A DNA stretch of 64,000 nt from contig OX597824.1 in the NCBI GenBank assembly GCA_951406725.2, forward strand, positions 59,892,001 through 59,956,000, written 5' to 3'. The notes under the pieces were generated by a model. The model saw nothing but the letters and a program-made list of their open reading frames with translations, had not been told where the DNA came from and made no database searches. Made by a program: the position numbers and the translations under genes. Source of the stretch: Octopus vulgaris. Its lineage: Eukaryota. This document shows positions 1,638 through 46,153 of the stretch, one piece after another; position 1 is the first letter of the stretch, and every line of letters starts with the position of its first letter.

Positions 1638-1650
1638 ACATATATATATA

Positions 1651-2607
1651 TCTCCCCCCTCCTCACCTATCCTTTCTCCCCCCGACCCCTACTTCTTCAG
1701 TCCTTCATCCTTTCACCCCCTACTCCCCTTCCCTTCTTCCCTCTTTCTCCCTCCCTCTTCCCCTTCCCTCTGCTCCCTCACTCCCTCTCTCCCCTTCTCT
1801 CTCCCCCTCTCCCTCTTTCCTCCTTCATCCCCCTCATCCCCTTCCTTCTCCCCCATCCTCTCCTCTCCCCCTTCTTCCCCTCCCCTTCTCTCCCCCTCCC
1901 CCTCTTCTCCTCACTACACCACATGACTTTACACATCACATCACATATGATGTGCCATACTAATACACACACCAACTAATACATACTAATACGTACTAAT
2001 ACATACTAGTACATACTAATACTTACACCAACCCTATACATACACACGTCCAGACCCCGCATACGCACTTATACTCTCTCTCACACACACACACACACCT
2101 ATACATACCAATACGTACTAATACATACTAATACATACTAATACATACACCAACCCCATACATACGCACGTCCAGACCAATCTTACGCACTAATACTCTC
2201 TCATACACACACACACACACACACACACCCTTATACATACTAATACATACACCAACCCTATACATACACACATCCAGACCCCTCCCACGCACTTTTAGCT
2301 GGTCCCTCAACCCACTTATCAACCCTATTATCTCCCCTTATTTCGCTCTCGCGTCTCATGTTTGATCTTTGACCTCTGGCCGAAATCAGATCGCCATGTT
2401 GATTCGTTAGCTACTGCACGCATTTTTTTTCTCTCCTTCTTTCTGTGTTTTTCTCTCTCTGTGTATCTTTCTGTTGAAGAGCGTAGGCTCGAAACGTTAA
2501 AGACTTGTTTTATTTATATTTCCTGAGCGCCATACTAATACAATTGTTCGTTTGTTTTCCACCTGCCTTCGTCTTTTGTTTATTTTCATAAAGCTTCCCG
2601 TTATATA
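1651..2607 (+). repeat. 5' pseudo-LTR of the Neptune-type PLE
   Basis: Near-identical to 6137-7090: C/T-rich tract, (ATACATACTA)n repeats, hammerhead, and the ending AAGCTTCCCGTTATATA. Confidence 0.9.
2466..2503 (+). ncRNA. Type I hammerhead ribozyme motif (variant core)
   Basis: TCTTT-CTGTTGA-A-GAGC(GTAG)GCTC-GAAAC-GTT-AAAGA. Stem I is TCTTT/AAAGA, stem II is GAGC/GCTC, stem III is the palindrome ACGT. The core has U at position 6 and an extra A after A9. Confidence 0.75.
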
Positions 2608-3223
2608 TTATGCGCTCACGTGGTCTCACTTTCATCCTATATTCTACCAATACCACTATCAACACTTACCTCTACCTTGGATTTTTTTTACCTCTTGGAT
2701 ACTTACCATTGGCTGCACCTCTCTTTCGCGGATCAAAGTGACTTTGCATTGATGTGAAATCCTTAAAAATATACCACGACGTCTACACATTTCTCACCTT
2801 GAACTTTCAACCTTGAACTTGTTCGCATAAACTGTCCCGTTTGTTGTATTTTTATTTCTTCTTATATTACCACTTTTTTTACATTCATTTCATGCTTCCC
2901 ACATTTTCCTGAATTTTTGTTCTCCTTTCCGTCTTTCTTCCCTCTCTGGATGTCCATACTCCGTTTCCTCTGCCTGCACCTCCCTTTTTTTGCCTCCCCC
3001 TCTCTCTGCTTCCCTTCTTTCTTTCCCTTTTCCGTTTGCCCCGTCTTTTCTGCCCCTATCGCTTACTTATCTAGTTTTTTCATACGATTATTATTTTTTT
3101 GTTTTTTTGAACGTTTGTTTTTTCCCCTTTTTTCGCTATCCTTTTTTTCTATTTTTTTCATACGATAATTTTTGTTTTTTGTTTTTTTTGTTTTTTCGAA
3201 CGTTTTTTTTCCGCTATCCCATC

Positions 3224-6130
3224 ATGCCGGATCCTAGGTCCTACCTCCTCACCCTCCATCACCGTTTGAAGGATCATCTACGTTCGCTTCCTGTATATTG
3301 CCTTCAGCCGTCCGTTAATCTCTCTCTACTTCTTTTTAAAAAAACCCGCTTCTCTAGCCATGTCTCTTTCCTAAGCCGCTGCCTACATCACCGACTCATC
3401 CCTAAAGGTTTCCGCCTCCACTTCCACCCTGCTCTCCACTCGGATTCTTCCATCTTACCCATACTCGGCACCACATCTTACCGCCTTATGCGGGCCACCA
3501 TTCGCTCCAATCTCTCCAAACTACATGCCATCAACCGCCTTCTTCCTCCTGCTTTCTCCACCTTCTTCTCCTCTCTGCCGCCTCTCTATGCTCCAAACAC
3601 GCTACGCTTCATTATCCATTTGAATCAACTCTTCCATCAATTTCTTTCTGATACCAAACTTCGTAAACTCCAATCACTCTTCCATTCCACCCTACCCGAC
3701 GCCACTACCCCAACTCCTCCACTACCCTTCTCCCCTCCCGATAGGCTCCATCCACCCACACCTAACCCCACTGCCCCTCCCTACAACCCCCTCTCCCCTC
3801 CCGTTAGGCTCCATCCACCTACACCTAACCCTACTGCCCCGCCCAACCACCCCCCACACACCTCTCCACTCCCTCCCCCTCAGACCTCCCCGAGACCTAC
3901 CACCCCTCCTACTTCTATTCCATCCACCCCTTCTCCACTTCCGTCTGTTGTTACCATTCCCCCCGATCTTCCCCTCTCTGCGGCTGAACGCTCCGTCCTT
4001 GGTAGGGGTCTGCGTTTCATCCCCCTCACTCCATCCTGTAAGGAATTCCAGACGCGAGTTGATGTCCACAGCTTTGTGCGCCGTGTCCGGTTGGGTGCGC
4101 ATTACCACGACTCGCCACCCACACCCAACGAAGAGGACGACTGCTTCACTGGCCTGGGCCGCCGACCATCCCCGTGGACGCCTGCCCCTGGCCAGATCCT
4201 AGCAGTGGATCTTTTCGCGGGCGCTTGTCAGCGTGCATTGGAGCGGTTCAACTTCTCCAGGCGCCAACGCCGCCTCAACATCTCCCCGGCTGAGCTCTTG
4301 GCTCTTCGTTCCCTCCAACGGCGCGCTGACATTATCATCAAACCGGCTGACAAGGGTGGAGCTGTAGTGGTGTGGCGCGCGGACCTCTATAGGGCCGAGG
4401 CTTTCCGCCAACTCAATGACACCTCCTTCTATTCCCCTCTGCCCTCTAACCCCACACGTAGCTACCAACAGACGGTATCCTCTACTGTCCAAGACCTCAT
4501 CTCGTCCTCCCGTCTCCCCCGCACCGCATCCAACCTAATTGTGCGAACCCCACGTACCCCCACCATTTACTTCCTCCCCAAAATCCACAAACCCAACAAC
4601 CCTGGCCGCCCCATCGTCTCCGCCTGTAACTGTCCCACGGAGCTCATCTCTAAATACCTCGACCGTGTCCTTGCCCCCCTAGTGGCATCTCTTCCCTCCC
4701 ACATCCACGATACCAACCATGCTCTCCGGCTTTTCAACTCTTTCTCCTTTCCTCCCGGCTCCTCCAAAATCCTTTTTACTATGGACATCCAAAGCCTCTA
4801 TACTGTTATCCCTCACCACGAAGGACTGCAGGCCCTTCGACACTTTCTTGACCTCCGCTCTAACCCTGTACCTGACACCTCCACACTCATTCGTCTGGCC
4901 GAACTTGTCCTTACTCTGAACTGCTTCTCGTTCGCGGGCGAGTTCTACCATCAGGTCTCGGGAGTGGCCATGGGAACGCGAATGGGCCCCAACTATGCGA
5001 ACCTGTTCGTTGGCTATGTTGAGGCCCAAATATTCTCTAATTTCACTGGTCTCACTCCTGAACTATATGGTCGTTATATTGACGACATTATCGGTGCCAC
5101 CTCACTCTCCCGCGAACATCTAGATTCCTTCCTCTCTTTCGTCCAATCTTTCCATCCAGCCCTCCACTTCACTTCCACTATCTCCAACACCTCTGTCTCC
5201 TTCCTCGACATTTCGGTTAGCATTCTTCACTCCACTCTTACCACCTCCATTCACTACAAACACACAGACTCACACTCATACCTCAACTTCTCTTCCTCCC
5301 ACCCAGAACACACCAAGCTTTCCATCCCCTATTCCCAATTCCTCCGTCTACGTAGGCTCTGTAGTGACGACCATGACTTTGAGACTCAGTCTCAACGTAT
5401 GGCTCACCACTTCACCCTACGTGGATACCCCCTCACCACTATCCACACCGCCCTTGCCAGAGCACGGTCCGTGGACCGTGTATCTGCTCTCTCTCCCCGA
5501 ACCCGCCCTGTAGTCTCCCGCCTCCCTTTCCCCTCACTTACCACCCCACGACCCTACGTCTCCAACGCACCATTCTTCGAGCTTTCCGTCATCTCCAGTC
5601 CGACCCGTCCACTTCACACCTCTTCCCTAACCGACCCCTCCCCTCTTTCAAACGAGCCCACAACCTTCGAGACCTTTTGGTCCATAGCTCCTTCCCTGAC
5701 CCTACCTCCCAACCCGGCTCGTTCCCCTGCTCCCGCCCACGTTGCCGCACTTGCCCTTACCTCTCCAACACCACCCGCCTCACTAGCACCCACCATCGAC
5801 CCTATCCCATCATCCACTCCTTCACCTGCACCTCCAGCAATATTATCTATTGCATCTCTTGCTCTCTCTGCAATTCCTTGTACATCGGACAAACGGGACG
5901 CCGCTTGGCTGACCGGTTCGCGGAACACCTTCGTGACATCCACCTTGCGAACGACACACCGGTCTCACGCCATTTCCGCTCCACCGGTCACTCCTTGCAA
6001 CACCTATCTGTGTTCGGTTTGTCCTTACACAGAGGCCATCCGGATTCCCGTTTGCGCCGTGAACAGGAATTAATCTTCTCTCTTCGCTCTTATACGCCAT
6101 TTGGTCTCAACTCTCCCCCCTCCTCATCTA
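3224..6130 (+). CDS. PLE reverse transcriptase + GIY-YIG endonuclease, split by a -1 frameshift near 5530
   Basis: RT motifs IKPADKGGAVV, LPKIHK..GRPIVS, TMDIQSLYT, GVAMGTRMGPNYANLF, GRYIDD and FLDI in ORF 2990-6073 (likely ATG 3224). The -1 frame continues LPFPLTYHP..., the linker CSRPRCRTC, NIIYCISC..LYIGQTGR..RFAEH and ..FGLN (ORF 5677-6411). The 3' end is approximate. Confidence 0.9.
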
Positions 6131-6136
6131 ACCCCC

Positions 6137-7086
6137 CTCTCCCCCTCCTCCCCTATCCTTTCTCCCCCCGCCCCCTACTTCTTCCGTCCTTCATCCTTTC
6201 ACCCCTACTCCCCTTCCCTTCTTCCCTCTTTCTCCCTCCCTCTTCCCCTTCCCTCTGCTCCCTCACTCCCTCTCTCCCCTTCTCTCTCCCCCTCTCCCTC
6301 TTTCCTCCTTCATCCCCCTCATCCCCTTCCTTCTCCCCCATCCTCTCCTCTCCCCCTTCTTCCCCTCCCCTTCTCTCCCCCTCCCCCTCTTCTCCTCACT
6401 ACACCACATGACTTTACACATCACATCACATATGATGTGCCATACTAATACACACACCAACTAATACATACTAATACGTACTAATACATACTAGTACATA
6501 CTAATACTTACACCAACCCTATACATACACACGTCCAGACCCCGCATACGCACTTATACTCTCTCTCACACACACACACACACCTATACATACCAATACG
6601 TACTAATACATACTAATACATACTAATACATACACCAACCCCATACATACGCACGTCCAGACCAATCTTACGCACTAATACTCTCTCATACACACACACA
6701 CACACACACACACACCCTTCTACATACTAATACATACACCAACCCTATACATACACACATCCAGACCCCTCCCACGCACTTTTAGCTGGTCCCTCAACCC
6801 ACTTATCAACCCTATTATCTCCCCTTATTTCGCTCTCGCGTCTCATGTTTGATCTTTGACCTCTGGCCGAAATCAGATCGCCATGTTGATTCGTTAGCTA
6901 CTGCACGCATTTTTTTCTCTCCTTCTTTCTGTGTTTTTCTCTCTCTGTGTATCTTTCTGTTGAAGAGCGTAGGCTCGAAACGTTAAAGACTTGTTTTATT
7001 TATATTTCCTGAGCGCCATACTAATACAATTGTTCGTTTGTTTTCCACCTGCCTTCGTCTTTTGTTTATTTTCATAAAGCTTCCCG

Positions 7087-7090
<4 letters not shown>
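6137..7090 (+). repeat. 3' pseudo-LTR of the Neptune-type PLE
   Basis: Direct repeat of 1651-2607, followed directly by (TA)n. Confidence 0.9.
6952..6989 (+). ncRNA. Type I hammerhead ribozyme motif, second copy
   Basis: Identical to 2466-2503. Confidence 0.75.
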
Positions 7091-7150
<60 letters not shown>

Positions 7151-7303
7151 GACGGGCTTCTTTCAGTTTCCGTCAACCAAATCCACTCACAAGGCTTTGG
7201 TCAGCCCGAGGCTATAGTAGATGACACTTGCTCAAGGTGCCACGCAGTGGGACTGAACCCAGAACCATGTGGTTGGTAGGCAAGCTACTTACCACACAGC
7301 CAC
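7151..7303 (-). mobile_element. tRNA-derived SINE fragment
   Basis: Minus strand reads GTGGCTGTGTGGTAAG (A-box-like) ... GGTTCAGTCCC (B-box-like). Confidence 0.65.
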
Positions 7304-7957
7304 AAAGAATCAACTGTTTTCAGCAGTCAGAAATTCAGAGACAAGTCACGTTGAATATGAAATCATTTACTGGTTGCTATTTCCACTAATTTAAGTAAAA
7401 CAAAAACGTATGTTATCTGGGTTTAGTCTTCGTCTTTTGCAATTAACTGCTTGCATTCTCTTGACATTCAAATGGAATGTTCCAGACTTTGAATGATAAT
7501 ATTGGTTTCAAATTCTCGCATAAGGCCTGCAGTTTTGTGGGAGGGATTAAGTTGATTACATCAAGCTGAGTGTTTAACTGATACTTATTTTATCAACCCC
7601 AAAAGAGTGAAAGCAAAGTCTACCTCCGTGCACTTTGAACTCAGAATGAGAAGAGCATTTTACCTGATGTGTTAATGATTCCGCCAGTTAGCTGTCCTAC
7701 TACAATAGATAATATTGACTTTGTTTATTCCACAATAACAATGACAAGCAGATAGTACGCATGACTGGTGACACATTACAGGTCGACCTTGTTTGATATA
7801 GGTATCAGAATGTACAACTGGTGACAGCAGTTGTGTTTCCAGTATGACATGCATTAAAAACAAAATTGTTATCTTCAAATTCAAAACTAGGTTAGATTAG
7901 ATGAATTCATTGGTAAAATAAAAAAAAAGTACTGATTTATTTTACAAAATATTTTTT

Positions 7958-8027
<70 letters not shown>

Positions 8028-8060
8028 GTGTATATCTTTGTGTAAATATATATGTGTCTA

Positions 8061-8111
<51 letters not shown>

Positions 8112-8177
8112 ACATATATGTGTGTATATATATGTATATATGTATATATATGTATATATATGTATATATATATATAT

Positions 8178-8710
8178 AATGATAAATCTCAGACCGAGTT
8201 ATAAGCAGTACCGGTAACACATCGTGACACATATTTCCCATTTGAATATGGCTAACCCCTAAGGGTGGATGCTACTGTAGTTTGTAGCCACAGGAAGATA
8301 TCTCCTCCAGCTTGCTATAGACACACTATCTGTTCCCTATCAGTATTTGTGAAGGGAAGTCACGATGTGTTACCGCTACTGTTTATAACTCGCTCTGAGA
8401 TTTATCATTGTTTGATTTCACTTTTTCAATATCAGTGTCAATCGACACAGGAAAAAGTATATGTATTTGTGAGGGAAACTGAATTCTCGTCGACAACTAT
8501 GATTGTCACACGCTGATGATAGGTAAACACCTTGAAACTCGAGTCCGTGTGTATCATAAGTTGAAGACGGAAGGATGACTTCCCTTCACAAATACTGATA
8601 GGGCACAGATAGTGTGTCTATAGCCAGCTGGAGGAGATATCTTCCTGGGGCTACAAACTACAGTAGCATCCATCCTTAGGGGTTAGCCATATTCAAATGG
8701 CAAATATGCG

Positions 8711-8714
<4 letters not shown>
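8178..8714 (+). mobile_element. Retrozyme-like non-autonomous hammerhead element: 351-nt monomer (8364-8714) plus an inverted partial copy (8178-8362)
   Basis: No ORF; central hammerhead. 8224-8362 is the reverse complement of 8576-8714, and 8178-8223 is the reverse complement of ~8364-8409. (TA)n lies on both sides. Confidence 0.75.
8507..8551 (+). ncRNA. Type I hammerhead ribozyme motif
   Basis: CACACG-CTGATGA-T-AGGT(AAAC)ACCT-T-GAAAC-TCGA-GTC-CGTGTG. Canonical CUGAUGA/GAAA core, GUC cleavage triplet, 6-bp stem I that extends further, palindromic stem III ACTCGAGT. Confidence 0.9.
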
Positions 8715-8768
<54 letters not shown>

Positions 8769-8936
8769 TTAGGGAATAAATCCAAATTTACAGGGAAAAA
8801 ATCAGATTAAGGATTAAATCCAGTTTTATAGTAAAATATTATAAAATATTATTAGAGACAAAACCACTATTTTGCAAAACAAACAAGGAAAGACTTAATC
8901 AATACATAAAATTTTAATAAATAGTCAAAAAAACCG

Positions 8937-8979
8937 CCACTACAATCGTTTCTTGTCTTGATCGACAATCTTCAGGTGG
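8937..8979 (-). ncRNA. Type I hammerhead ribozyme motif
   Basis: Minus strand: CCAC-CTGAAGA-TTGTC(GATCAA)GACAA-GAAAC-GATT-GTA-GTGG. Confidence 0.85.
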
Positions 8980-9564
8980 ACTTCAATCTAAAATATCAAT
9001 ATTTTAAAATATACAAATAATAATTTTAAAATAATTAAAGTATGAATGAAAAAATATAAATATATAATCCATATATAACCTATATATAATCCATATATAA
9101 TCAATATATAAACAATATATAAACTAACATAAACCTATCAACAATTAAATATAAAATATAAAATATAAAACAAAACAAAAAAAAAATAATAATAATATAA
9201 TAATAAACTATATATACACCCATACACATATACCTAATTATATATAACCAAATCTAACTACATACACTAAATCACACACCTATATATATATCCCTATACA
9301 TACACATAAAAACGTCTAGGCAACTATAAATAAATAAAATAGCTAAATACTTCAACACAATACTTATTCATACTCCCACACACACACACATACAACCCAC
9401 ATTCACGCTCTAGAAAACGGACATCACTCAAAATTATGAACGGAGAAATGGAATAAATGGAATTAAAAATTATATTCACTTGGTAAAACGAACACTACTT
9501 AAAAATTATGAATGAAACAATGCAATAAAACAACAGACATCGCAAATATACACAAATTACTACG

Positions 9565-12500
9565 AATTCCTTAACAAACCTACCATGATAAACCAAAACT
9601 CACAAAAACATATAATGATAAAATCTCCCTTTACTAAACTCTATAACATACCTATATAGCAATCCCCCTAACCTAAACATTCACACACAAATACACACAC
9701 GTAAACCACACACCCACGACATATACAAATACCCACACCACTTACACATACCAATACATACATATAAACCTCAACATATACTCCAAAAACCCACTCAACC
9801 CCACACAGACAAATAAACACAAAAATTAAGAATGGATTCTTTTATAAAACTACCATGATAAGCTAAAACTCACAAAACAGAAATGATAAAACCTCCCTTT
9901 ACTAAACACTATAACATACTTATATAGCAATCCCTTTAACCTATACATTCACACACAAAAACACACACACGTAAACCACACACCCATAACAAATACAAAC
10001 ACCCACCCCACTCACACACACCCACAAGTACATATAAGCCTCAACATATACACCAAACAAAATTACCTTACCAAGGAACTTAACATATGTATAAAAAGTA
10101 TAACCACTCTGGAAACGAACATCTCTAAATTAATGAATGGAGAAATGGAATAAATGGAATTAAAAATAATATTCACGTGGCAAAACGAACACCACTCAAA
10201 AATTATGAATGAAACAATGTAATAAAACAACCAACATCGAAAATAGACAAATTACCACGAATTCCCTAAAAAAACCATGATAAACCAAAACTCTTAAAAA
10301 CATATAACGATAAAATCTCCCTTTGCTAAACTCTATAACAAACCTATATAGCAATCCCCCTAACCTAAACATTCACACACAAATACACACACGTAAACCA
10401 CAGACCCACGACTTATACACATACCTATACTAACTTATAAACCTCAATATACACCAAAACCCACTCCCTCCCCACACAGACAAATTAACACATACATCCC
10501 AAAACCTAAATAACAAACCCATATACACATTCACACACAAACACACACACACGCAAAACACACACACACAACAGATACATATACTCCCTCACATATACGC
10601 ATATACATACTCACTAAACTCGATATATACAACAATATTTACACACCCACACTCATACAGATAAATAAATTATACAACTAAAAACTCACACACAATCTCA
10701 TATACATAAACACTCCTATGAAAACAACATTAAATACATCGTAATTAACCAGAATATAAAAAATAACAATATGACATAAGGATAAATAAAATACATACTT
10801 ACAAGTCAGTTTCAAATTATAAAGTGAAATTAAATTCTTAGCCGTTAAAAAAATCAAACCAAAATTACGTTACCATAGAAATAACTTATGTAAAAAAAGA
10901 ATACGCGTCATGGAAAGTAAACGTCATTTAAAATTATGAATGGAGAAAAAGAATAAATGGAACTAAAAACTATATCCACGTGGCAAACCAACACTACTTA
11001 AAAAAAAATTTATTATGAATGGATTCTTTAAAAAACTACCATGAAAAATCATTATATACATTTATGAGCTTTAGCTCACCTTAGCAGCTCTAACAAACAA
11101 CTTGCAGCAACCCAAACCTATTCTCGATGCCTACCTCACTACTACACTATTCCACTCACAATTCCAAGCAACGCTAGTCCACCACCCGGTTACAATTCCC
11201 AACCCCACCCATTCATTCACAATTTCAACGACGTTCGCCTCCACAGCACTACATATAAGCCTCAACATATACACCGGAGATTCACATCCGTGCGGATGGG
11301 TGAGAGTAATTCCTTAACAAACCTACCATGATAAACCAAAATTCACAAAAACATATAATGATAAAATCTCCCTTTACTAAACTCTATAACATACCTATAT
11401 AGCAATCCCCCTAACCTAAACATTCACACACAAATACACACACGTAAACCACACACCCACGACATATACAAATACCCACACCACTTACACATACCAATAC
11501 ATACATATAAACCTCAACATATACTCCAAAAACCCACTCAACCCCACACAGACAAATAAACACAAAAATTATGAATGGATTCTTTTATAAAACTACCATG
11601 ATAAGCTAAAACTCACAAAACAGAAATGATAAAACCTCCCTTTACTAAACACTATAACATACTTATATAGCAATCCCTTTAACCTATACATTCACACACA
11701 AAAACACACACGTAAAACACACACCCATAACAAATACAAACACCCACCCCACTCACACACACCCACAAGTACAAATAAGCCTCAACATATACACCAAACA
11801 AAATTACTTTACCAAGGAACTTAACATATGTATAAAAAATATAACCGCTCTGGAAACGAACTTCTCTAAATTAATGAATGGAGAAATGGAATAAATGGAA
11901 TTAAAAATAATATTCACGTGACAAAACGAACACCACTCAAAAATTATGAATGAAACAATGTAATAAAACAACCAACATCGAAAATAGACAAATTACCACG
12001 AATTCCCTAAAAAAAACCATGATAAACCAAAACTCCTAAAAACATATAACGATAAAATCTCCCTTTGCCAAACTCTATAACAAACCTATATAGCAATCCC
12101 CCTAACCTAAACATTCACACACAAAAACAAACACGTAAACCACAGACCCACTACTTATACACATACCTATACTAACTTATAAACCTCAATATACACCAAA
12201 ACCCACTCCCTCCCCACACAGACAAATTAACACATACATCCCAAAACCTAAATAACAAACCCATATACACATTCACACACAAACACACACACACGCAAAA
12301 CACACACACACAACAGATACATATACTCCCTCACATATACGCATATACATACTCACTAAACTCGATATATACAACAATATTTACACACCCACACTCATAC
12401 AGATAAATAAATTATACAACTAAAAACTCACACACAATCTCATATACATAAACACTCCTATGAAAACAACATTAAATACATCGTAATTAACCAGAATATA

Positions 12501-13037
12501 AAAAATAACAATATGACATAAGGATAAATAAAATACATACTTACAAGTCAGTTTCAAATTATGAAGTGAAATTAAATTCTTAGCCGTTAAAAAAATCAAA
12601 CCAAAATTACGTTACCATAGAAATAACTTATGTAAAAAAAGAATACGCGCCATGGAAAGTAAACGTCATTTAAAATTATGAATGGAGAAAAAGAATAAAT
12701 GGAACTAAAAACTATATCCACGTGGCAAACCAACACTACTTAAAAAAATTTATTATGAATGGATTCTTTAAAAAACTACCATGAAAAATCATTATATACA
12801 TTTATGAGCTTCAGCTCACCTTAGCAGCTCTAACAAACAACTTGCAGCAACCCAACCCATTCTCGAAGCCTACCTCACTACCACAATTCCAAAACGCTAG
12901 TCCACCACCCGGTTACAATTCCCAACTCCACCCATTCATTCTCAATTTCAACGACGTTCGCCTCCACAGCGCTACATATAAGCCTCAACATATACACCGG
13001 AGATTCACTTACACATCCGTGCGGATGGGTGAGAGTA
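9565..13037. repeat. Tandem duplication of a ~1.74-kb unit with internal sub-repeats
   Basis: AATTCCTTAACAAACCTACCATG begins at 9565 and at 11308. Both units end CATCCGTGCGGATGGGTGAGAGT. Confidence 0.9.
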
Positions 13038-14219
13038 TACATTGAGTGTAGTGATGGGGCTCCCATTACTATACACATTTGTACCTGTGTGGTAGTCTCC
13101 ATGTGTATATTCACGCACGGGTATAAATGCAGGGGGTACACGTGCACGTCATTAGCGTGTACCCCCTCACATGTACATATGCATGCTATTTGGGCTCGAT
13201 ATATGCAACAATGTAATCGCGCCCGCATACATGCATATGGGCGAGTTGCACAATCAAAAAACGCACACATGTGTGTGTGCGTTCCCTGGTTGTGCAATTC
13301 ACCCATCTTGGTGTGAGTGGGTGTAAACGTATCGCTGTGGATGTCGAGCTTGATACGTATGTATATGAGTGTGTATTGGGGGGTTGTATGTATTTATTGT
13401 GTGCATGTGCTTCACGCACGTGCGTCCATGTATGGATGAATATATTGGGATTGCTAAGTGGGTGTAAATTGGGTATGGAGGGGGAGTTTTGTCATTGTAT
13501 GGGTGTGGGTTTCATATGTGATGGTGGTTAGTTGGTAATTTTTGGTATGTTCTGTATATTTGGGTTAGTTATGTATTATTCTAGTGTGTATAATTGTATA
13601 CATATGATTGGTGTGAGTGGGATTACAACAATTTTTGGGGATGTATGTGTTTATTTATCCAAATGGGGCGGGAGTGGCCGTTAGGTGTATATGTTGAGGC
13701 TCACATGCAATTCCAGGTACAGCGAATGAAGTGGGCACTTATATTTGTTATGGGTGTGTATACTTTATATAACAGACAATACCCAAATAAAATCTGTCAA
13801 TTCAACATACCAAATAAAAAGCAAAAAACAAAGGGATCATAAACATTCACACATACATACAAAACTCAATAAAAACACCACTAAATAACACCCATCAACA
13901 TATAAATATATCCTCCAAAATACATATAACAAATGCATAATAAAAATTAAAAAAATACATAATAAAATAAAATTAAAATAAAAAAATAAAAAAATAAAAA
14001 AATATATAAATAAATAAAATAAAAAAAATCTAATATAAATTATTAAAGTTTTAACATACCATATACTGTTAAATTAATATACATTAAAATGAACTAATTA
14101 AAACAAAGAAATATCAATAAAGACTAACTATAATTAAAGCCTAGACAACATAACCAAAAATATATATATCTAAACTAATTTAAACTAAACTAAAGTAACC
14201 TAAAAGGGAACTATTAATG

Positions 14220-15962
14220 CTATTTATCATGAAACTTATTATATAGGTAAAGTAACTTATGTCTGCATTTTATTTTGCGCTCTTCACCAGTATTAAGTAA
14301 ATTATCATACTTATAAAATAAAATTTCTTTAAACTCATTAGAGCATAAATAACAACAATTAGCTCCTATAGTATATGATTTAGTTTTACAAATTATTTCC
14401 CAAATTAAACTATAATTAATATTTAGTGATTTAATACTCCAAATGTACTTACTAAGTCCGGTTGAGTTGATTAAGTTTTTATTTTTAAAAGAATTCATAT
14501 GTTGTGCGATTCTTAGTTTTATTTTTGAGGAAGTTGAACCTATATAAACCGCTTTTGTGTAATTATTATTCTTAAAGTTATTATCATGTAATGTAACTAT
14601 ACATTTATACACTACATCGTTAATATCACAATTATTATTTAATATACAATTAGATTTATCTCTACATGTACAATTAATATAAGTCTTATCATTATTAATA
14701 TTATTATCAAATAATTTCTTTTTATAAAAATTATTCAGTTTATATTTATTAAATGAAGAAATAATGTTACCAACATTATTAGTGGTAGAGTAACCAACTC
14801 CAAAATTATTAAAAGAGAAAATGTTTCTATATTTACGATTATCTCTAATAAATAGTTCTATAACATCTAAAATCTCTTTAATAATATTCGTTTTTACTTG
14901 ATCTCCATAAGGAACTATTAACCAAATTTTATTCTTATTAACCTTATTATTATTATCATTATTATAAATATATTTATAATTCTTTATTTTATTAAAATTA
15001 TTATCAGAATAATATCTATGTACAGCATTTAAGGAATTATTAATATTATTAAATTTATCAATATAATTATTATAATAATTATTAAATTTATTTTTATTTT
15101 TATTATTCTTATTTATATTATTATTATTATATTTATTATTATTATTATTATTATTATTTATATTTTTATCATTTTTATTTTTTTTTTTATAATATCTATT
15201 ATTTTTACCACTAAACCTAACAAAATTATAATTATTATTAGAAGTATCTCGAAAATTAACAATTAAATCTTTATCACTAATATTATAAAATTTAATATTC
15301 CTATTATAACCTGCCCCTCTAAGGGCCTCATTATAATAATTAGCATGTTTATTAAAAATCTCTATATCATAAGAGAGTAATGAAATACGTTTACTTATAT
15401 TATTAATCAACGATTTTTTAATAGAAAATGGGTGATTACTATTAACATTTATATATCTAAGGTTCTCATTAAGTTTATGATATGGTTGTGTTTTACCTGT
15501 AATAAGATTAAAATTAACATCTAAATAATTAACATTATAATTCTCCTTATATATAGTAATACTTAAACCATATCTTTTAAAGAAACTATATAGTTTTTTC
15601 TTATATACTTCTAGATTCCTATTAGTACAATTCTTTGTAACTAGTAGAAGATCGTCTCTATATAAACCACCCTCTATCTTAAGATTTTCTAATTGGAGTT
15701 CAGATAAAAGAAAAATACCTACTAAATCAGTAGCCTGTGCAGAATCTGGTGCTCCCATAGGTATATCAAAACAATCTCTAGTATCATTCCTAGCCCATAA
15801 TTTATTTTTATATTTAATTAGCGATTTCCTAGCCATTTTAATTACATTAACTTCTTCCCGTGACATACCCACTTTATTCATTGCGAAAATAAGCGCTTTA
15901 TTAAACACAATTTCATTAATAGAAGAATAATAATTATCTATATCTATTTGAATAAATTTATA
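14220..15962 (-). CDS. PLE RT (from motif A onward) + GIY-YIG endonuclease; 5'-truncated, open frame
   Basis: Motifs [91 protein letters not shown] and CRH. The upstream part of ORF 14220-16427 is microsatellite read-through. Confidence 0.88.
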
Positions 15963-15982
15963 TGTATATGTATATATATATG

Positions 15983-16019
<37 letters not shown>

Positions 16020-16094
16020 GTAAATATATATGTGTGTATATATATATATGTGTATATATATGTATATATGTATATATATATGTATATATATATG

Positions 16095-16129
<35 letters not shown>

Positions 16130-16190
16130 ATGTATATATATATATGTATATATATATATGTGTATATATATATATGTATATATATATATG

Positions 16191-16251
<61 letters not shown>

Positions 16252-16271
16252 GTATATATATGTATATATAT

Positions 16272-17370
16272 TGTTACGAGGGAACCTCCGAAAACTGTAC
16301 GGAATCCCTCAGACAGGCCCGACTCGATCAGCGAATGTTCTCGCCACGGAAACTCGTCGGAGAGGAGAGGAGAGACACAACAACAACAACCGCAGCAGCA
16401 CAGAGAGATACAGAGGCACAGAGGCAAGGCAACACTGGCAACACTGGCTTACATTCAACAACTAGTTTATATGACAATCAATGGTTACAACATCAAAGCA
16501 TTTAAGGCAAACAACAAATCAATACATCATACGGGTATACCACAGATCAAAGCATTTAACAACATGCATGTAACAATATAACAGTGTTCAGTAACGACAC
16601 AACAAGTCCAGATCAAATAATGTTCACGATACGTCACAGTCCAATCAGAACACTTCGATACATTATACAATGTTCGTATCACAACAATTCACGTTACAAT
16701 TCAACAAGTCCTTTACTGTTCTTTTCACCGTTCATTTCTTTTCACTGTCTCTTTACACCGTGACACGTATCAATACACAATCACATACCTTAATTCCTAA
16801 CTGAATCGCCAGTGTCCCATTCTGCTCTCATCTCTCTCTCAATACTGCTAAATCCAGCTTGCCAAACTCCTGCATCCCAACTTGCTTGCTCCTAAGATTC
16901 CACCTACTCGCTCTGACTTCCAGAATCCCACTTCGACGACCGACTCCAACTCCCAAGACCTCACTTCCTCTCTAACTGCCCTGCTCCCTTACTGCCCTGC
17001 TCCCTTACTGCCTATCTCTATCGCCTCAATCTGTCCCTTAGCCTTATACTCTATCTCTCTCACTTCTTTTCTTCTCTCTGCCCCTCATCCTCTCTTACTG
17101 CCAATACCCTCTAAATCTGCTCTTAGATTCCCTACTCTATCTTTCTCGCCCGCTGCCTATCACCCTCTCATGACAGCTCTGCCATACTCTCTATCTGCTC
17201 TCAGCCCTACTGCCTATCTCTCTCACGACAGCTCTCAGATCCCTTAATCTGTCTTCCTCTTCCACATTCTCTCTGACCCCTTCTCGACCGGCACAAGGGC
17301 AAAGGTCCTTCCAAAAGCCATTAGTCTCCCAGTAAACAAAGGGCTGTCCCTTTTCTTCCAGACGTGCCGG
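16272..17370 (-). mobile_element. Possible solo or partial LTR
   Basis: Non-coding block starting TGTTAC (minus-strand end ...GTAACA) next to (TA)n. The other end is not clearly defined. Confidence 0.3.
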
Positions 17371-17371
17371 C

Positions 17372-18750
17372 GAAACTGTAACCTAAATTGGTTGTAGAGT
17401 TTACAGTGGTTTCATAAATGATTGTCTCGGACATGCAAGCTCCATTTAGCGGGCACAAATTGTTATCCTTGCATGAACAACTGGTTTCATTTTGTAGTTT
17501 CGAGAAAAGAAATATTTAGCCCCTACAGAGGGGAATTTCAAGGCCAGGTTCAATAATCACTCCTTCAGATTCAGGCACTGGGATAAAAGGAAAACGACCA
17601 AATTATCTGGTCACATATGGTCTTTAAAAGATAAAGGTATCAGTTACAACATCGATTGGAAGATCTTAGCCAAGTGTAAGCCTTACACCAACGGCAGTGG
17701 TAAGTGCGGTCTTTGAGATATGGAAACAGGGCTCATCTGGAAAAGCAGCTTAGACCCTGCTACATGTCTAAATTCAAGATCTGAACCTTTCGGATCATAT
17801 TCACATGTGGCTAAATATTTGTTACGTTTTTGGTCCCCCATAAGATCACAGATAGAACTTGCTTTTTATCTCGTGTCCACGTAGAAGCGTTTTATCTCTA
17901 TACTTTTTATATATATTTCTTATATATTTTTTACATATTTTTACATACTTATTGAGATATATTTTTATATTTTTATTGCTTTATATATTTTTACACTTTT
18001 TTCCTGTATTTTACCTTCCACTCTGCATTTTTCTTGTGCATGTGCATATATAGACGTGCATATGAAATTTTCATGTGCATGTGTGTGTGTGCGGGTATGT
18101 ATATATGTATATGTATATGCACATGTGTATGGCTGCATATGTACGTGAGAGTCCACGCGAGTGTAAGTGAGCATATGCATATTTAGCATGTATGTTTTTA
18201 GAGGTGCATTTGAATATAACTGTGCGCGTATGGTTACGTGCACGTGTGTGTCTGTGTGTGTGTGTGTGCGTGTATGCGCGCGTGTGTGTGAATTTGTATA
18301 CGTGTAGATGCATGTTTGCATATATACGTGCATCTATTTGACGTATGTGTCAGTGCGCATGTGTGTGTTTCATGCGAGTCTGAGTGAACCTATACATATA
18401 GGTACATGTACGTGGGTGTGCGTGTGCGCATGTGTATGTATGTATGTATGTATGTATGTATGTATTATGTATGTACATGCACGCACACGCGATTGCTATG
18501 GGCTTTCTTACTCCTTTACTTTTTACTTCCTCCCCTTCGGTTTTTTCCCTCGTTTAACGGTCATCCTAATAGCTCTTTTGTCTTAATAACGGTCATTTAC
18601 ATAGTAATTTCCCTTTGTTTAAGAGTCATTTTCTGAGCATATTTTAATTGCCTCGATAACTGAAGAGATGCCGATGCAGGTTTCCGCCCCGACATCCGAA
18701 ACTCGGAGTTTTATTATGACAACCGAATAACTGTCACATACTATATTACA
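17372..18750 (+). mobile_element. Second Hydra-type PLE 3' fragment with a 5' inversion (degenerate)
   Basis: Minus strand 17500-17377 encodes TSCSCKDNNLCPLNGACMSETIIYETTV. Plus strand ~17520-17840 encodes TEGNFKARFNNH..LSGHIWSLKDKGISYNIDWKILAKCKPY..CGL*..CLNSRSE. A hammerhead follows, then (TA)n. Confidence 0.8.
18655..18715 (+). ncRNA. Type I hammerhead ribozyme motif
   Basis: GATAA-CTGAAGA-GATGCCG...CGACATC-C-GAAAC-TCGGA-GTT-TTATT. Confidence 0.7.
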
Positions 18751-18763
18751 AATATATATATAT

Positions 18764-18811
<48 letters not shown>

Positions 18812-18815
<4 letters not shown>

Positions 18816-18866
18816 ATAGAAGGAGCTTCTACAGGAAGAAGTCCTGTAGAAGCTCCTTCTATAAAA
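18812..18866. repeat. Perfect 25-bp inverted repeat with a 5-nt loop
   Basis: TTTTATAGAAGGAGCTTCTACAGGA-AGAAG-TCCTGTAGAAGCTCCTTCTATAAAA, lying between (TA)n tracts. Confidence 0.9.
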
Positions 18867-18935
18867 ATAAATTAATTTACTCTGCTATGTATTGAGTACC
18901 TTATTTACTGTGGTTAACCCCGACTCAACCCGGGA

Positions 18936-18978
<43 letters not shown>

Positions 18979-19064
18979 AAGGGTGGAAAGGAACACACGA
19001 GTTGATATATATGTAAAAATAAGTCAAAATAGAAAATGCTATAATAATTTTATAGTGAACATTT

Positions 19065-19102
19065 CAGTACCGGTTTCGGTCATTTTGAGACCTTTTCAAC
19101 TG
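19065..19102 (-). ncRNA. Type I hammerhead ribozyme motif with U3-A8 covariation
   Basis: Minus strand: CAG-TTGAAAA-GGTC(TCAAAAT)GACC-GAAAC-CG-GTA-CTG, about 90 nt from a (TA)n boundary. Confidence 0.7.
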
Positions 19103-19785
19103 TAACGATTAAATAATTAAATTTAGAAAAATTAGAAGAAAAGTTTTTTTAAGGGAATATTTCTATAGTAGTGTTCAGATATAAGTGGCATTCTGCTTAT
19201 AACTTTTTGTCGGTGTTCGTCCCTCACCACTGCTTATATCTGATTTCTTTTACAACAAATTTGTCGAAAACAATCCCATGTGACTAATGTTCAAAATGTT
19301 GAGATATTTGAATTAGATGTCTTGATTAGAGTTTTATTTTATTGATTATCTTTAAATCTTCTGAGCATTTGTTGTTTATGTTGCAAACTGGTAGAGTCAT
19401 TACAGCACAAGGAGAAAATGATTTGTAGTATGTCTTCTGACTCTTTGCCTTCTGTGTTGAAATCCTTATAAGTTCAACTCAGTTTTTCATCCTTTCAGGG
19501 TTGATGAAATAAAGTAGCAGTCAAGTACAGGGGTCAATGGTTTTGAGTAATCCAAGCCCTAAAAATTGTTGGCCTTGTGCCAAAATTTGGCAGTGAGATG
19601 GTAAAAAACCTTACCACACTGGACAAAATGCTTAGCAGCATTTCTTCTGGTTAGTTCAGATATTGGCAAGGGCAACTTTTCCTTATATCCTTTCAGGGTT
19701 GATAAAATAAGTACCTGTTAAACATTTGGAACGACTAGCAATCGACTAGTTTCCTCCCTTAATAACGTTTCAGGCTTTGTGCCAA

Positions 19786-19835
<50 letters not shown>

Positions 19836-20319
19836 AGGAACAATATAACCTTACTAAGTGTGTGGCAGTGTAACTATGTTGGAAAAATCCATACTAATCG
19901 AAGCGAAAACATGAATGCAGCATTAACCATGCTAAGGTGTGTACTACATGACAAAAACGTATGAAAGCTGTTCAATGAACCACGATGGAAGAAGTAGTAT
20001 ATGTTAGCAGAGTAAAGGTATAGTGAGTACTACTCGATACTGAGATGACCGGTACTGTTTTACAACTTGCGAAATAGTAAACAGTAAAGTGTGAGAGGAG
20101 TGACTCTATAACCCTGGAGATGCTGGACTCGAAAGAGGGAGAGCTATGATGCCAAAGCCCCGGAGACGTTGGATTCTTAGAGAGAGAGAAAAGTGATATT
20201 ATAACCTTGGAGGACTCTAAATCTACTTGCCACAATTCTCAGGAACAGAAAAAAATTGGTGCACGGGATTAATGACAGCAGCTGAGATACGAGGGGTACT
20301 GAATACATATCATGTGATC

Positions 20320-20570
20320 ACGTAACCAACCAGACTATTAGATGTTACACATTGCTGGTAACAATGCTCTTTGCATTGTTTTAGCCATCAAATGACGCCA
20401 CTCTGCTGGCTAAGCGAGCAGGCCAACATTCCCCTTTGATCGAAAAGTGACTGAAGCAACGTGAAATGAAGTGTTTTGCTCAAGAACAGAACGCGCCGCC
20501 CGGTCTGAGAATCGAACCTACGATCTAGCGATCGTGGGTGCAACAGTCTAACTACTGGGGCACGCGCCTT
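20320..20570 (-). mobile_element. tRNA-derived SINE
   Basis: Minus strand begins GGCGCGTGCCCCAGTAGTTAGA...GGTTCGATTCTC (A/B boxes), followed by TTCTTGAGCAAAACACTTCATTTCAC. Confidence 0.65.
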
Positions 20571-21399
20571 CACACCGAATGAAAGGAGGAAACTGCAGGA
20601 CAAAAAGGCTGCCGTTGTTTTCGTTTGATCTCTAGATTTGTTAGTCCAAGTCTTAGCAAATATGAACTAAAATTCTCAACAGACTTGGAGTGTTCTTGGT
20701 TGCATAAATGATCAGTTAGTTGTGGTACAGTAGCGGGGTATACTAGATGGTTGCCACGATAGACAAAGGTTAAAAGATATATGATGAAAGTTGCGTTCAG
20801 GCTGCGTATAATGATCACAAAACACTCGGGATCAATTAACAGAGTTTTTTTCTCCGCATAAATAATTTTCATGTTTTCATGTTTATTCGTGAATTAAAAA
20901 ATTATGACAACAAAGTTTACACACTGGAAAGAATTTTATGTAGCTTTTACAAATAGTTGATTTAAAAGGCTCTGTAATTAAGCTGCGGAAACAGGAGAAA
21001 ATATACTGGGATCCTGTCAGCGAACTGTAGCTGCGTGTCTAGATTCAGTGAGAGTCGTGATAACGACTGTTAAAAGCAACAAAATAAGTATGCAGTTAGC
21101 TTAGCTGCAGGCGGCGCTCAAAAGCCTTTTATGGAGAATATTCTAGATGCGTCTAAAAAGATGCATCATGTGATGTTTGGCTACTGACTTGTCTATAATT
21201 CGGCCGATCACTTGAAAACTGTTACTTAAATGTGATTTTAACTTGGCAATTCGTCGATTCGGTTTCAAATCTTGCTACTATACTGGTAAGGACGGACTCA
21301 AACAAGAGGGTAACAATAGAAAATTTTAAATTGCTCTATGTCGAGTTTAAAAATCCAGTCAAGATACTGTCAAAGAGTGTTGTAGGGAATTAGTAATAA

Positions 21400-22725
21400 T
21401 GGTACAACTCTCACACGTGATGAACGGAATAACCTAGTCACTATAAGTAAAGAGAAGTACGAAAAGTACCAGAGTTCGTAGTAGGCGGACAAGGAAAATT
21501 GAAATCATGTCGACCGCTCAAGTCGAAAAGGCATTAAAACCAATCTGGCAAGGGATTTCTTACTTTGCCAGAGAAAGAAAGTTTGGAACGGTAGAGCTGC
21601 AGTTCCGGGAGGTAGCTAATGCTAGGCTGCACTCGGCAACAGCCTTGGGAGGTGTGCTTCCAGAGTTAGGGTAGAAGATATACCCCCAGAAATTGATGTA
21701 GCCTGGCTAGCAGCTGTCATACTGCTGGGCACGAAAGAGAAGGTAGTAGTCCTCCAGGCCACCAGAGCACCCCATAAGAACTGGCAAGAGCAGAGCCCAA
21801 ATATGATAATGTAGGCGGCCCCGGAAGACCTTGAAAACATGGTCGAGACCATCACGGTCGAAGAGGTGACACTCAGGGTCAGAGCAAAAGGCAGAATCCC
21901 GCGATGCTATAAATGTGACCTGAAAGGCCACATTAGAGCGGACTGTCCGCCACCTGTGAAGATTAAAGAGAAACCCGAGAGCAGAAAGGAAATCACGACT
22001 TCACCACCAACGAAAACCAGTACCAGCGCCGAGGAAGAGGAGGTGAACGAGGGAAAGAACGGATGGGAAACGGCTGGGAAAAAAGAAGAAAGAGAAGTAA
22101 AAAAAGCACACTTTGTAAATGATGACCCTCATCCCACACCCACTCCACTCCCACCCACACCCACTCTACTCCAGCCTCCCCCTACAGACACCTACCCTCT
22201 CCATGCCTCACCTGACACAAAAAAGCACAAGCACACAGGAGCCCCAAACTTCCCCACTCTTGCATGTAAGAAAAAATATGTTATACTATACAACGGACGA
22301 AATGAAAACTTTATAATGAGATAGACTCGTAGGACAGAACGATAAAAGTGAATACTACAGAAGTTAGGGGATTGCCCAAGTTCTTTCAGTGTGTGGTGCC
22401 AGAGTATCTTTCGAGAGTAAAGGATTATGAGGAGGACTTTGATTGGTGGGTCAAGAAAATGGACACCAGTACAATACCAGAATGGGTAAGCTATTTTGAA
22501 CTTTTAAAGAAATTTAACATGGATATTCTTCGGAAAGAATAACTGTTACAGATAATGTTTTAAAATTTTGTATTAACAGGTTCAATGAAGTTGCTCGGAG
22601 GTGAGGCCGAATGGCTTCATTTCATTTATCATTTTATCTAATTCGTCCTTTCCAACCTTTTTTCTGTCCTCCACCATGTGGTGTCTCGTCTGTGTTAGGA
22701 ACTGTGTGGCCAATAAAAGAAAAAG
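21400..22725 (+). mobile_element. Degenerate Tx1/L1-group LINE derivative (ORF1 with zinc knuckle + 3' end)
   Basis: RKFGTVELQF, IPPEIDVAW and CYKCDLKGHIRADC (CX2CX4HX4C). Ends GTGTGGCCAATAAAAGAAAAA. Homologous to the ORF1 at 54690-53800 that lies next to APE/RT fragments. Confidence 0.65.
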
Positions 22726-23177
22726 TATGTAGTACGCAGTCGTGCTACTTCCACAGTTCACAGTGTGTCGTGTTGTTTCTATATTGGATGGCTTTATGAA
22801 GATACTGTTGAATTTGTTACTGTTTGTTGAACGCTGTTACCTGCTTAGCAGGTCTGTTGTTGGAATTCTGTGCTTTCCTCTAAGGGGGAAAGATTTGAAC
22901 GTTGAGTTTTTTCTTTCTTTTTTTTTTTTTTTTGAACTGTAACTTATTGAAAGTTTTTGTTTGTAAACTGTATCCTTCACCCTACGGGGGGGGGGACTGA
23001 ACTCGTGATTCTCATTTGCAAGAATTTTTCAAAAAATATTTTTCACTTTTGTGAGGAATTTATTTAAAAACAAATCTTGTTCTACTGTGCGAGGAATTTC
23101 TTTCTTTTCCTCCTTTGCAAGCAATTTATTTAAGAAATCTTTTTCTCCTGTCTGAGAAATTTATTATATATATATAT

Positions 23178-23550
23178 TTCTATACTTTACATTATCGAGC
23201 GATTACTGTTTCAATCTCATTCTGAGATTTAATTATGCTTACTGTTCGTTTTTCGACATCAGTGGCAGACGCCATTAGAAAAACTTATATCTATTTGCAA
23301 AGGAGCCTTCACTTTCATCGCTACCTGGTGGTTGCCGCCCGTTGACGAGGGACAAATATCCCGAAACTAGTTCGAGCGTATCACTCAGGCTTGCGAGGAA
23401 GGGATGGCCTCCCTTTGCAAATACTCCAAAGATACAGATATTGTGTTTAGAGCCAGCTAGAGACGAAGATCTCTTGGGGCTATAAAGCTACAGTAACAAC
23501 CCCCTCCCCAATGTGGTTAGCCATGATAAGATGGCTTCTATATTTTACAT
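23178..23550 (+). mobile_element. Second retrozyme-like hammerhead element (358-nt monomer with terminal direct repeat)
   Basis: TTCTATACTTTACAT (23178) and TTCTATATTTTACAT (23536) bound the element. It is colinear and homologous with 8364-8714, and is preceded by (TA)n. Confidence 0.72.
23336..23378 (+). ncRNA. Type I hammerhead ribozyme motif
   Basis: CGCCCG-TTGACGA-GGGA(CAAATA)TCCC-GAAAC-TA-GTT-CGAGCG. C3 is replaced by U; stem III is the palindrome ACTAGT. Confidence 0.75.
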
Positions 23551-23569
23551 ATATCTGTGTTTTTCTACG

Positions 23570-28362: not shown

Positions 28363-29019
28363 TATATGTTTTGTTATACCAACTAAATTTTTGTTTTGTT
28401 TTTGTAACTTTCAGTATTTGCAATGTTCCTAACATTAAAAAATCTGGAAGGTATGACCTTTATCTCTTAGAAAATTATCATTTCTAGCAAAAGCAAAGGA
28501 AAATTTGTGAAGAAGTATAGTCGATACCATCGTCCCCAGTTCTTGACTAGTACTTTATTTTATCGACCTGGAAAGAATAAAATACAAGATCGAATTCGAG
28601 TGATTTGAAATCAGAATGTAAAGGGCTGTAAGAAGTACTACAACGCAATTTGTCCAACTCTTTAATGATTCTGCTGTTGCAAATTAAGAACGAAAAATGG
28701 GAATGAGGTTTAACCCGATAGATTTTTATGTATTAGAAATAAGAAAAAAAATTCTGTAATTCATTAAACTCTAGGACTGCGCTAACAATGATTATCTCCC
28801 TTGCTTTTGCATGTTTTACAAATGAAGACAGAAATACCGTATATACTCGTGTAAAAGTCGAATTTTTAGACCACTTTTAAGGTCAAATGTATGGGGTGGA
28901 CTATTACATAGATACTAGTTTTGAGGGGCTGAAATTCAAGCTAGCATCCGAAGTACCGTAACAACAGCAGAAGCCCACTCTGATCGTTAAGCGAATAAAA
29001 ACAATGAATTACAATAATA

Positions 29020-29390
29020 TTCTCTTCTACTCTAAACACAGGGCCTGAAACTTTGTGGGGAGGAGCCAGTTGATTAGATCGACACCATTACGTAACTGGT
29101 ACTTAATTTATCGACCCTGAAAGGATGAAAAGCAAAGTCGACCTCGGCGGAATTTGAACTCAGAGCATAAGGACAGACAAGGGGCTAAACACAGAAGGGA
29201 CAAACAAAGACAGACATAGGTATTAAGTCGATTACATCGACCCCAGTGCGTAACTGGTACTTAATTTATCGACCCCGAAAGGATGAAAGGCAAAGTCGAC
29301 CTCGGCGGAATTTGAACTCACAACGTAACGCAGACGAAATACCGCTGAGCATTTCGCCCGGCGTGCTAACGTTTCTGCCAGCTCGCCGCT
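29020..29390 (-). mobile_element. tRNA-derived SINE(s), partially duplicated
   Basis: Two copies of ACTGGTACTTAATTTATCGACCC..AAAGGATGAAA..CAAAGTCGACCTCGGCGGAATTTGAACTC. The same family recurs at ~7510-7690, 19470-19790, 28530-28670, 39600-39870 and 42440-42545. Confidence 0.7.
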
Positions 29391-29465
29391 TTGCAATGAA
29401 TTACAGTAATATTACCAATTCTATGCATCAAAACACACGTCCCAGTAAATAACAAAGCCAATACA

Positions 29466-46070: not shown

Positions 46071-46153
46071 ATGATAATAATAATAATAAAGATGATAATA
46101 ATAATGATAATAATTTCTTTTTATTTTCAGGTATTTGAAGATTTTCCTCCTGA

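Follow-up and report, generated by a model that had tools for sequence, protein, structure and literature searches.

Hammerhead motifs of Penelope-like elements and small retrozyme-like units in 22 kb of the Octopus vulgaris genome

This article describes seven hammerhead ribozyme motifs, and the mobile elements that carry them, in a stretch of 64,000 nucleotides (nt) of Octopus vulgaris DNA (assembly GCA_951406725.2, contig OX597824.1, positions 59,892,001 to 59,956,000, forward strand), referred to below as the window and numbered from its first letter. The motifs are carried by six insertions, named A to F, all of them new representatives of element types already known. Coding Penelope-like elements (PLEs), or (truncated) 3' ends of such elements, account for four, two Neptune-type (A, E) and two Hydra-type (C, D); B and F are small non-coding units. 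An initial annotation of the same sequence had seen here a self-reinforcing hotspot of insertion into (TA)n, with helper PLEs and non-coding satellites sharing one targeting and processing machinery.

Motifs and elements of the cluster

Both strands of the window were scanned with a descriptor that allowed at most two changes in the core and called for stems I and II and a paired stem III. Exactly seven motifs were returned, with cores at 2471(+), 6957(+), 8513(+), 8975(-), 18660(+), 19099(-) and 23342(+). They are the same seven, with the same stem III strings, that the initial annotation had picked out, and as it had noted for the remaining 40 kb, no hammerhead motif was found on either strand beyond 23.4 kb. 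This is far above shuffled sequence, since 60 block-wise dinucleotide shuffles gave, per 64 kb, no motif with a perfect core, 0.23 with one change and 0.85 with two. All seven are real type I motifs as previously assigned, with the elements in the type I order (CUGANGA, GAAA, UH), a closing stem I and pairing in stems I and II. None shows the non-circularly permuted order (SGC or CSG) and all read as ordinary type I, no permuted descriptor having been run. Rfam gives a single hammerhead match, HH9 at 19049-19113 (19.7 bits against a gathering score of 52); its remaining matches in the window are microsatellites resembling microRNA families. Because the motifs at 2471 and 6957 sit in the two terminal repeats of one element, the seven motifs represent six insertions.

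Element A (1655..7094, plus strand) is a PLE built of two pseudo-long terminal repeats (pLTRs) around an open reading frame (ORF). Its left end follows (CA)n and (TA)6 and its right end runs into (TA)n at 7088; a repeat at 7151 that resembles a short interspersed element (SINE) starts at the 3' TA tract. The pLTRs (1655-2608 and 6141-7094) are 99% identical. The ORF for reverse transcriptase (RT) and GIY-YIG endonuclease (EN) is broken by a frameshift near 5.5 kb, with the domains in two frames (RVT_1, E-value 1.2e-7; GIY-YIG, E-value 0.0012), and another copy (L216) holds an RT (Pfam RVT_1) and a weak GIY-YIG within one stop-free stretch of 948 amino acids (aa). The protein has a DKG motif, its linker is Cx4CxxC, and its GIY-YIG core holds two cysteines. 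The hammerhead of the 5' pLTR (2466..2503, plus strand) has the core CUGUUGA, with U at position 6, an extra A before stem II and the stem III ACGU; that of the 3' pLTR (6952..6989, plus strand) is identical to it, with a TA tract 104 nt downstream.

Element E (18974..19196, minus strand) is the solo 3' pLTR of another PLE and ends at the TA tract 18938-18973. Its hammerhead (about 19063-19104, minus strand) has a U3-A8 core and the stem III ACCGGU. The coding nature of the family is seen in two of 15 other loci (L183, L186), where RT-EN lies directly upstream of the pLTR, and in a third where it is inverted beside it. These two relatives have the Cx4CxxC linker and two cysteines in the GIY-YIG core, the DKG region lying outside the sampled loci; inverted arms of the family are 25 nt shorter. 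On these motifs A and E are probably of Neptune type, the linker being one that Nematis also has.

A and E resemble the Neptune PLEs that have minimal hammerheads (Cervera and de la Pena, 2014, PMC4209133; Craig et al., 2021) in their Cx4CxxC linker, in carrying a type I hammerhead within the pLTR and in a stem III that is short and palindromic. A also agrees with them in its additional base ahead of stem II but differs by the U at core position 6; a U3-A8 core like that of E has been described (PMC4209133, PMC3088659).

Element C (8761..15960, minus strand) is a 5'-truncated PLE with TA fields on both sides. It consists of an RT-EN ORF (14220-15960), a long, internally repetitive 3' region with a 1743-nt duplication, a 3' pLTR with the hammerhead, and a tail of about 75 nt. 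ORF and hammerhead are collinear in other copies and thus form one minus-strand element; the tandem repeats at 9.4-13 kb, considered as a separate hammerhead satellite, are its 3' region. The hammerhead (8937..8979, minus strand) has a canonical core and the stem III ACGAUUGU. In the copy L218 an 839-aa ORF stands between two hammerheads 5996 nt apart. RT and YIG motifs were recognised in it by eye, no Pfam RT hit being returned, and its translation has the marks of the Hydra clade (DKT, CxCx5C linker, CxxC, CxH, no CCHH). Assignment to Naiad was rejected, the endonuclease being C-terminal. The pLTR pair of A and the tandem, inverted and two-ended copies of C agree with the PLE structure of tandem pLTRs, an inverted 5'-truncated arm and an optional tail.

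Element D (from about 17390 to 18751, plus strand) is the decayed 3' end of a second PLE, with a broken GIY-YIG remnant, a 3' region and a hammerhead with a canonical core (18655-18715, plus strand), and ends at TA 18752. Its similarity to the endonuclease of C (tblastn E-value 1.6e-7) suggests a Hydra-type element. The nearest copies are 87-92% identical, with inverted pieces among them. In locus L166 a D-family 3' end joins an F-family fragment that starts inside the F hammerhead.

Hydra-clade PLEs (Craig et al., 2021, PMC8557442) resemble C in the C-terminal GIY-YIG, DKT, CxCx5C linker, CxxC, CxH, canonical hammerhead and insertion into (TA)n. They are generally below 3 kb, in contrast with a C unit of about 6.0 kb that has a repetitive 3' region of about 3.5 kb and a clear pLTR. 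C was likened to the octopus element Hydra-1_Obim by description. The clade names Hydra and Neptune are suggested by motifs. The proteins of A and C align weakly in BLAST (E-value 5e-4), and because the PLE hosts fall into two clades with barely alignable proteins, no single machinery serves all elements.

Element B (8179..8714, plus strand) is non-coding and consists of a circularly permuted unit of about 352 nt (8363-8714) and a back-to-back inverted arm (8179-8362). It sits inside a TA field (7963-8178 and 8715-8760), and its hammerhead (8507..8551, plus strand) has a canonical core and the stem III ACUCGAGU. The 33-nt region of this core has 54 exact copies in the genome. In B copies the unit end joins the unit start with no ORF between, and the longest stop-free stretch is 63 aa. 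Element F (23177..23555, plus strand) is a related non-coding permuted unit of about 360 nt, 68% identical to B over 325 nt, and the only adjoining TA is a (TA)6 on its 5' side. Its hammerhead (23336-23378, plus strand) has U3 and G8 in the core and the stem III ACUAGU; tandem and inverted copies have no ORF, with a longest stop-free stretch of 70 aa. A small non-coding tandem unit, one type I hammerhead each and head-to-tail junctions make B and F fit the description of non-LTR retrozymes, to judge by their sequence. A third B-related retrozyme was met in a random block (L073:2100-4800) as a five-unit tandem and a two-unit inverted array with a period of 353-359 nt.

The picture drawn in the initial annotation is thus partly retained. 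It had counted at least five repeat families; the motifs at 2466 and 6952 belong to one element and those at 8507 and 23336 to related families. Its satellite hosts are reduced to B and F, the other four being coding PLEs or their 3' ends.

Stem III and core variants

Canonical cores occur in three of the seven motifs (elements B, C and D). The others have U6 in both A copies, U3 with G8 at 23342 (F) and U3-A8 at 19099 (E). The stem III strings had been described as tiny and mostly palindromic; the strings are confirmed, two of them being imperfect palindromes (ACGATTGT and ACTCGGAGT). In energy models stem III either could not be closed in a monomer or cost +2.1 to +6.0 kcal/mol, whereas the intermolecular duplex was favourable in all six elements (-1.7 to -10.7 kcal/mol, weakest in A at -1.7). 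Stem III is therefore predicted to be stable only as a dimer. Low-rate cleavage as dimers is reported for such motifs (PMC4209133, PMC6765202), as is protein-assisted cleavage for one of them (PMC11167929). With stem III left unconstrained, 1.2 Mb yielded 30 motifs, of which 26, corresponding to five of nine distinct strings, had perfect inner palindromes; 21 of these 26 are the B string from loci picked for B.

The variant cores differ in what is known of them. The U3-A8 pair of E is a known natural covariation (PMC4209133, PMC3088659). The U6 of A stands at a core position that is normally invariant. Searched with positions 6-7 and 17 unspecified, the A-type motif is matched exactly at 13,010 places of the genome against none for a control. 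Among the 100 matches listed, position 6 is T in 98, while position 7 is T in 42, C in 25, A in 23 and G in 10. No report of a U6 (A6U) core was found in the literature searched, a search that did not extend to Lunse et al. (2017).

The variant cores of A (U6) and F (U3 with G8) might be relics without catalytic activity that persist because binding of protein, or priming, requires the pLTR. We lean against this reading while giving it real weight: a natural A6C variant is slow and cleaves poorly (PMC3088659), and an anole PLE goes on inserting in vitro when its hammerhead is mutated, according to the available text of PMC11167929. It is opposed by the near-constant position 6 beside a position 7 that varies among A-type subfamilies, and by stem III strings that differ in sequence and are perfect palindromes all the same. 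A rather bolder proposal, advanced tentatively and with somewhat less confidence still, is that this very common U6 hammerhead (its copies include a young family 99-100% identical) still cleaves as a dimer or with the aid of its own RT protein, that the stem III palindromes, which differ between families, are a self-recognition code favouring homodimers, and that a PLE dimer with two fixed priming sites writes circles of B and F into TA tracts. If so, the specificity between helper and passenger would become directly testable.

Two further groups of sequences were noted. Three random blocks (L124, L139, L150) hold four motifs of another repeated hammerhead-like family with the core GUGAACA, that is G3 with C8, a compensatory swap of the 3-8 pair. 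At 45037-46114 of the window lie two repeats of about 580 nt, 73% identical and with (AAT)n ends, each with a CTGAAGA that the descriptor does not fold as type I.

Insertion into TA tracts and crowding of the cluster

Family copies outside the six window loci were used to count 3' ends and flanks, with (TA)5 or longer after the 3' end as the criterion and a background of 10.8% in random stretches. The 3' ends lie in TA in 14 of 15 copies of A, 16 of 19 of B, 13 of 15 of C and 14 of 15 of E; the 15 D copies end in TA (8), CA (4) or neither (3), and F ends in TA in only four of 15. The copies counted are mostly young, as they are top BLAST hits. The earlier claim that every host abuts (TA)n therefore holds well above background for five of the six families, and mostly not for that of the motif at 23336. 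Adjacency also exceeds background without any choice of family: of the 30 strict motifs in 40 content-blind random 20-kb blocks (800 kb from an assembly of 2.80 Gb and 227 contigs), 15 are followed by a TA tract within 200 nt, where 12.7% would be expected (P 8e-7, the motifs not being independent). Targeting of TA by such elements is already published. Almost all Hydra families in the available text of PMC8557442 insert in (TA)n, its File S1 includes an octopus family (Hydra-1_Obim) with that preference, and for Neptune the linker has been proposed as mediator of (TA)n targeting.

Footprints of insertion are visible at the non-coding units. At targets other than pure TA, where direct repeats are informative, such repeats of 8-14 nt border 10 of 56 loci of B and F, compared with 10 of 439 permuted pairs, and because of these target duplications an insertion leaves TA on both sides, which bears out that much of the proposal that insertion regenerates its targets. 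Back-to-back arms occur in 23 of 40 B loci, 15 of these 23 with one arm ending at unit position 355 and the other at 46-56; four of six such F loci end at 378 and 62-65. Coding C likewise has two ends, at about 7125 and 7200, some 75 nt apart. Work in vitro on the PAc Poseidon element (Frangieh et al., 2024, PMC11167929) traces the tail to the stretch between two internal RT start sites, an arrangement that the twin ends of B, F and C match. That system is alike also in an AT-rich target cut on both strands and a predicted protein dimer; it differs in clade and in a target that is AT-rich (ATT) rather than (TA)n, and no passengers were tried in the text available. A target duplication above 100 nt around C was considered and is not established, the TA fields otherwise differing and measured duplications being 8-14 nt. 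The imperfect TA fields flanking B plus C have an identical 21-mer (8037-8057 and 16015-16035), possibly from a common ancestral tract. In two loci (L208:634-4990 and L209:3645-5890) regularly interrupted TA-rich arrays of about 4.4 and 2.2 kb abut C 3' ends, which could be ordinary expansion or reiterative synthesis at insertion.

We consider it likely, with a probability of roughly 0.8, that the seven motifs are standard type I hammerheads of six independent insertions, four of coding PLEs from two clades and two of retrozymes of about 355 nt that were probably copied by PLEs, and that it is by chance that they lie so close together within 22 kb, as a local peak in a genome where such elements and TA tracts both abound. 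The observed part comprises the anatomy, the family 3' ends at (TA)n, the two fixed arm ends and the 8-14-nt target duplications of B and F. The steps in between would be as follows. A PLE RT-GIY-YIG protein would nick an AT-rich or (TA)n target, and reverse transcription would be primed from either of two sites within a tandem or circular RNA, frequently from one on each strand, giving back-to-back arms. Repair would then duplicate some 4-7 TA units, making two tracts of one. Each coding family would use its own endonuclease and B and F would borrow one, so that the shared machinery of the initial annotation would survive for these two units only. The hammerheads are predicted to cut slowly, as homodimers via the palindromic stem III or with help from protein.

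The density data agree with chance crowding. The cluster is average in TA (20 tracts in 23.5 kb against a mean of 20.4 per 20 kb in the random blocks, of which 21 of 40 have at least 18 and none has one or fewer), and it contrasts with the other 40 kb of the window because those are unusually TA-poor, with a single tract. Strict motifs collapse to 22 insertions in the 800 kb, with a mean of 0.55 and a variance of 0.56 per 20 kb, that is, without overdispersion. The window has five strict insertions in 21.9 kb (E fails the strict core) where 0.6 are expected (Poisson P 4.0e-4), and about 51 such stretches are expected in a genome of 2.8 Gb. Hammerheads of other families are not enriched beside 110 loci (10 against 11.5 expected): for 20 B copies, drawn in list order from an exact-match search, the count within 5 kb was 3 where 5.2 were expected, and for 90 copies from six families it was 7 within 1.5 kb where 6.3 were expected.

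Several points weigh against this reading. The window stands at about eight times the mean and above all 40 random blocks when tandem copies are collapsed (block maximum 2), and it includes two tail-to-tail pairs, B and C on one TA tract and D and E about 220 nt apart. The first 100 listed A-type matches on C1 vary at the Mb scale (40, 8, 20 and 27 per 5 Mb; P 5e-5), and 9 of the gaps among these first 100 are shorter than 10 kb, where 4.4-5.2 would be expected (P 0.06-0.07). No more than 10 events underlie the flank tests, which detect only motifs that still fit the strict descriptor. DNA similarity of B and F to A, C, D and E is not significant (best E-value 0.24), and no helper was found for them. 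Finally, four of the seven cores depart from the consensus, with cleavage a matter of modelling. Mild regional clustering is possible.

The self-reinforcing hotspot, in which insertions duplicate or extend (TA)n and so attract more and all families depend on one targeting machinery, is improbable and a runaway form of it is not supported. It could draw on the real target duplications of B and F, the Poisson tail with its tail-to-tail pairs, the near-significant excess of short A-type gaps, the kilobase TA arrays next to C 3' ends, and the tendency of PLEs to insert into or beside existing copies (PMC6765202). It fails both flank tests and the dispersion test. TA count is no predictor of the number of motifs (Spearman 0.20, P 0.22), and TA targets are far too plentiful to be limiting, as only 18 of 569 TA fields carry a strict hammerhead end. 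The 100 kb on either side of the window have 3 and 1 strict insertions, and the involvement of two unrelated protein clades speaks against a common machinery. Splitting of a tract adds one target where there is already about one tract per kb, and is therefore too little for a runaway hotspot.

The non-coding units and neighbouring features

That B and F were inserted by some PLE protein is a well-supported inference; of 2808 B candidates and 1499 F candidates, 40 each were scored. That they are instead solo or tandem pLTRs of an unsampled coding PLE, or SINE-like repeats moved by a long interspersed element (LINE), is very unlikely, even with that small share scored and with the example of E, which shows no coding part in the window although its family is coding at other loci, since the unit end runs into the unit start, no in-line ORF was met in the loci inspected (20 of B, 10 kb each, and 36 of B and F, 3.3 kb each), the PLE-protein matches near B lie on the opposite strand or past a TA tract, and the two fixed ends and inversions are PLE-like. 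The joint of unit end and unit start is also found in contigs of three runs presumed to be RNA, as well as in genomic copies and in a large run of unstated kind; no run with this joint is recorded as RNA, and contigs are unable to show strand, RNA ends or circles.

The closest counterparts of B and F are the non-LTR retrozymes of animals (Cervera and de la Pena, 2020, PMC7229834; Li, Clavereau and Pollet, 2026, bioRxiv 10.64898/2026.07.22.740005), for which mobilisation by PLEs is proposed in the available text. B and F are alike in non-coding tandem units of 350-360 nt with one type I hammerhead, in low GC and in target duplications above 4 nt. They differ in having mostly 1-2.5 units, inverted arms and two fixed ends in microsatellites, with no homology to PLE pLTRs found. 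The word 'octopus' is absent from the main texts of both papers as available.

The cluster can be viewed as an ordinary sample of a very large hammerhead population, about 100,000 strict motifs if the 31 per 800 kb hold genome-wide. Our literature search suggests that little has been written on hammerhead ribozymes of cephalopods. Active Penelope-like families and hotspots of transposable elements are reported in a 2026 repeat annotation of Octopus vulgaris (PMC13282606), with ribozymes unmentioned in the part available. What the locus adds are target duplications of 8-14 nt, which microsatellites usually hide, and non-coding units with twin ends of the Penelope type. Candidate helpers are young families in which a long ORF is intact (L216, L218), and the mass-copied U6 core variant is one whose activity is easy to test.

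Other features of the window were recorded in passing. A short piece at 18812-18937, between two TA tracts, opens with a long, near-perfect hairpin and has matches in the random sample; it was not identified. Very high-copy SINE-like repeats lie at 1426-1595, 7151-7304, 28994-29414 and 39581-39886, with 114-192 hits in 1 Mb of sampled loci. In the TA-poor part, an uninterrupted ORF of 509 aa at 46154-47683 (plus strand) encodes a UDP-glucuronosyltransferase (PF00201, E-value 1.6e-81).

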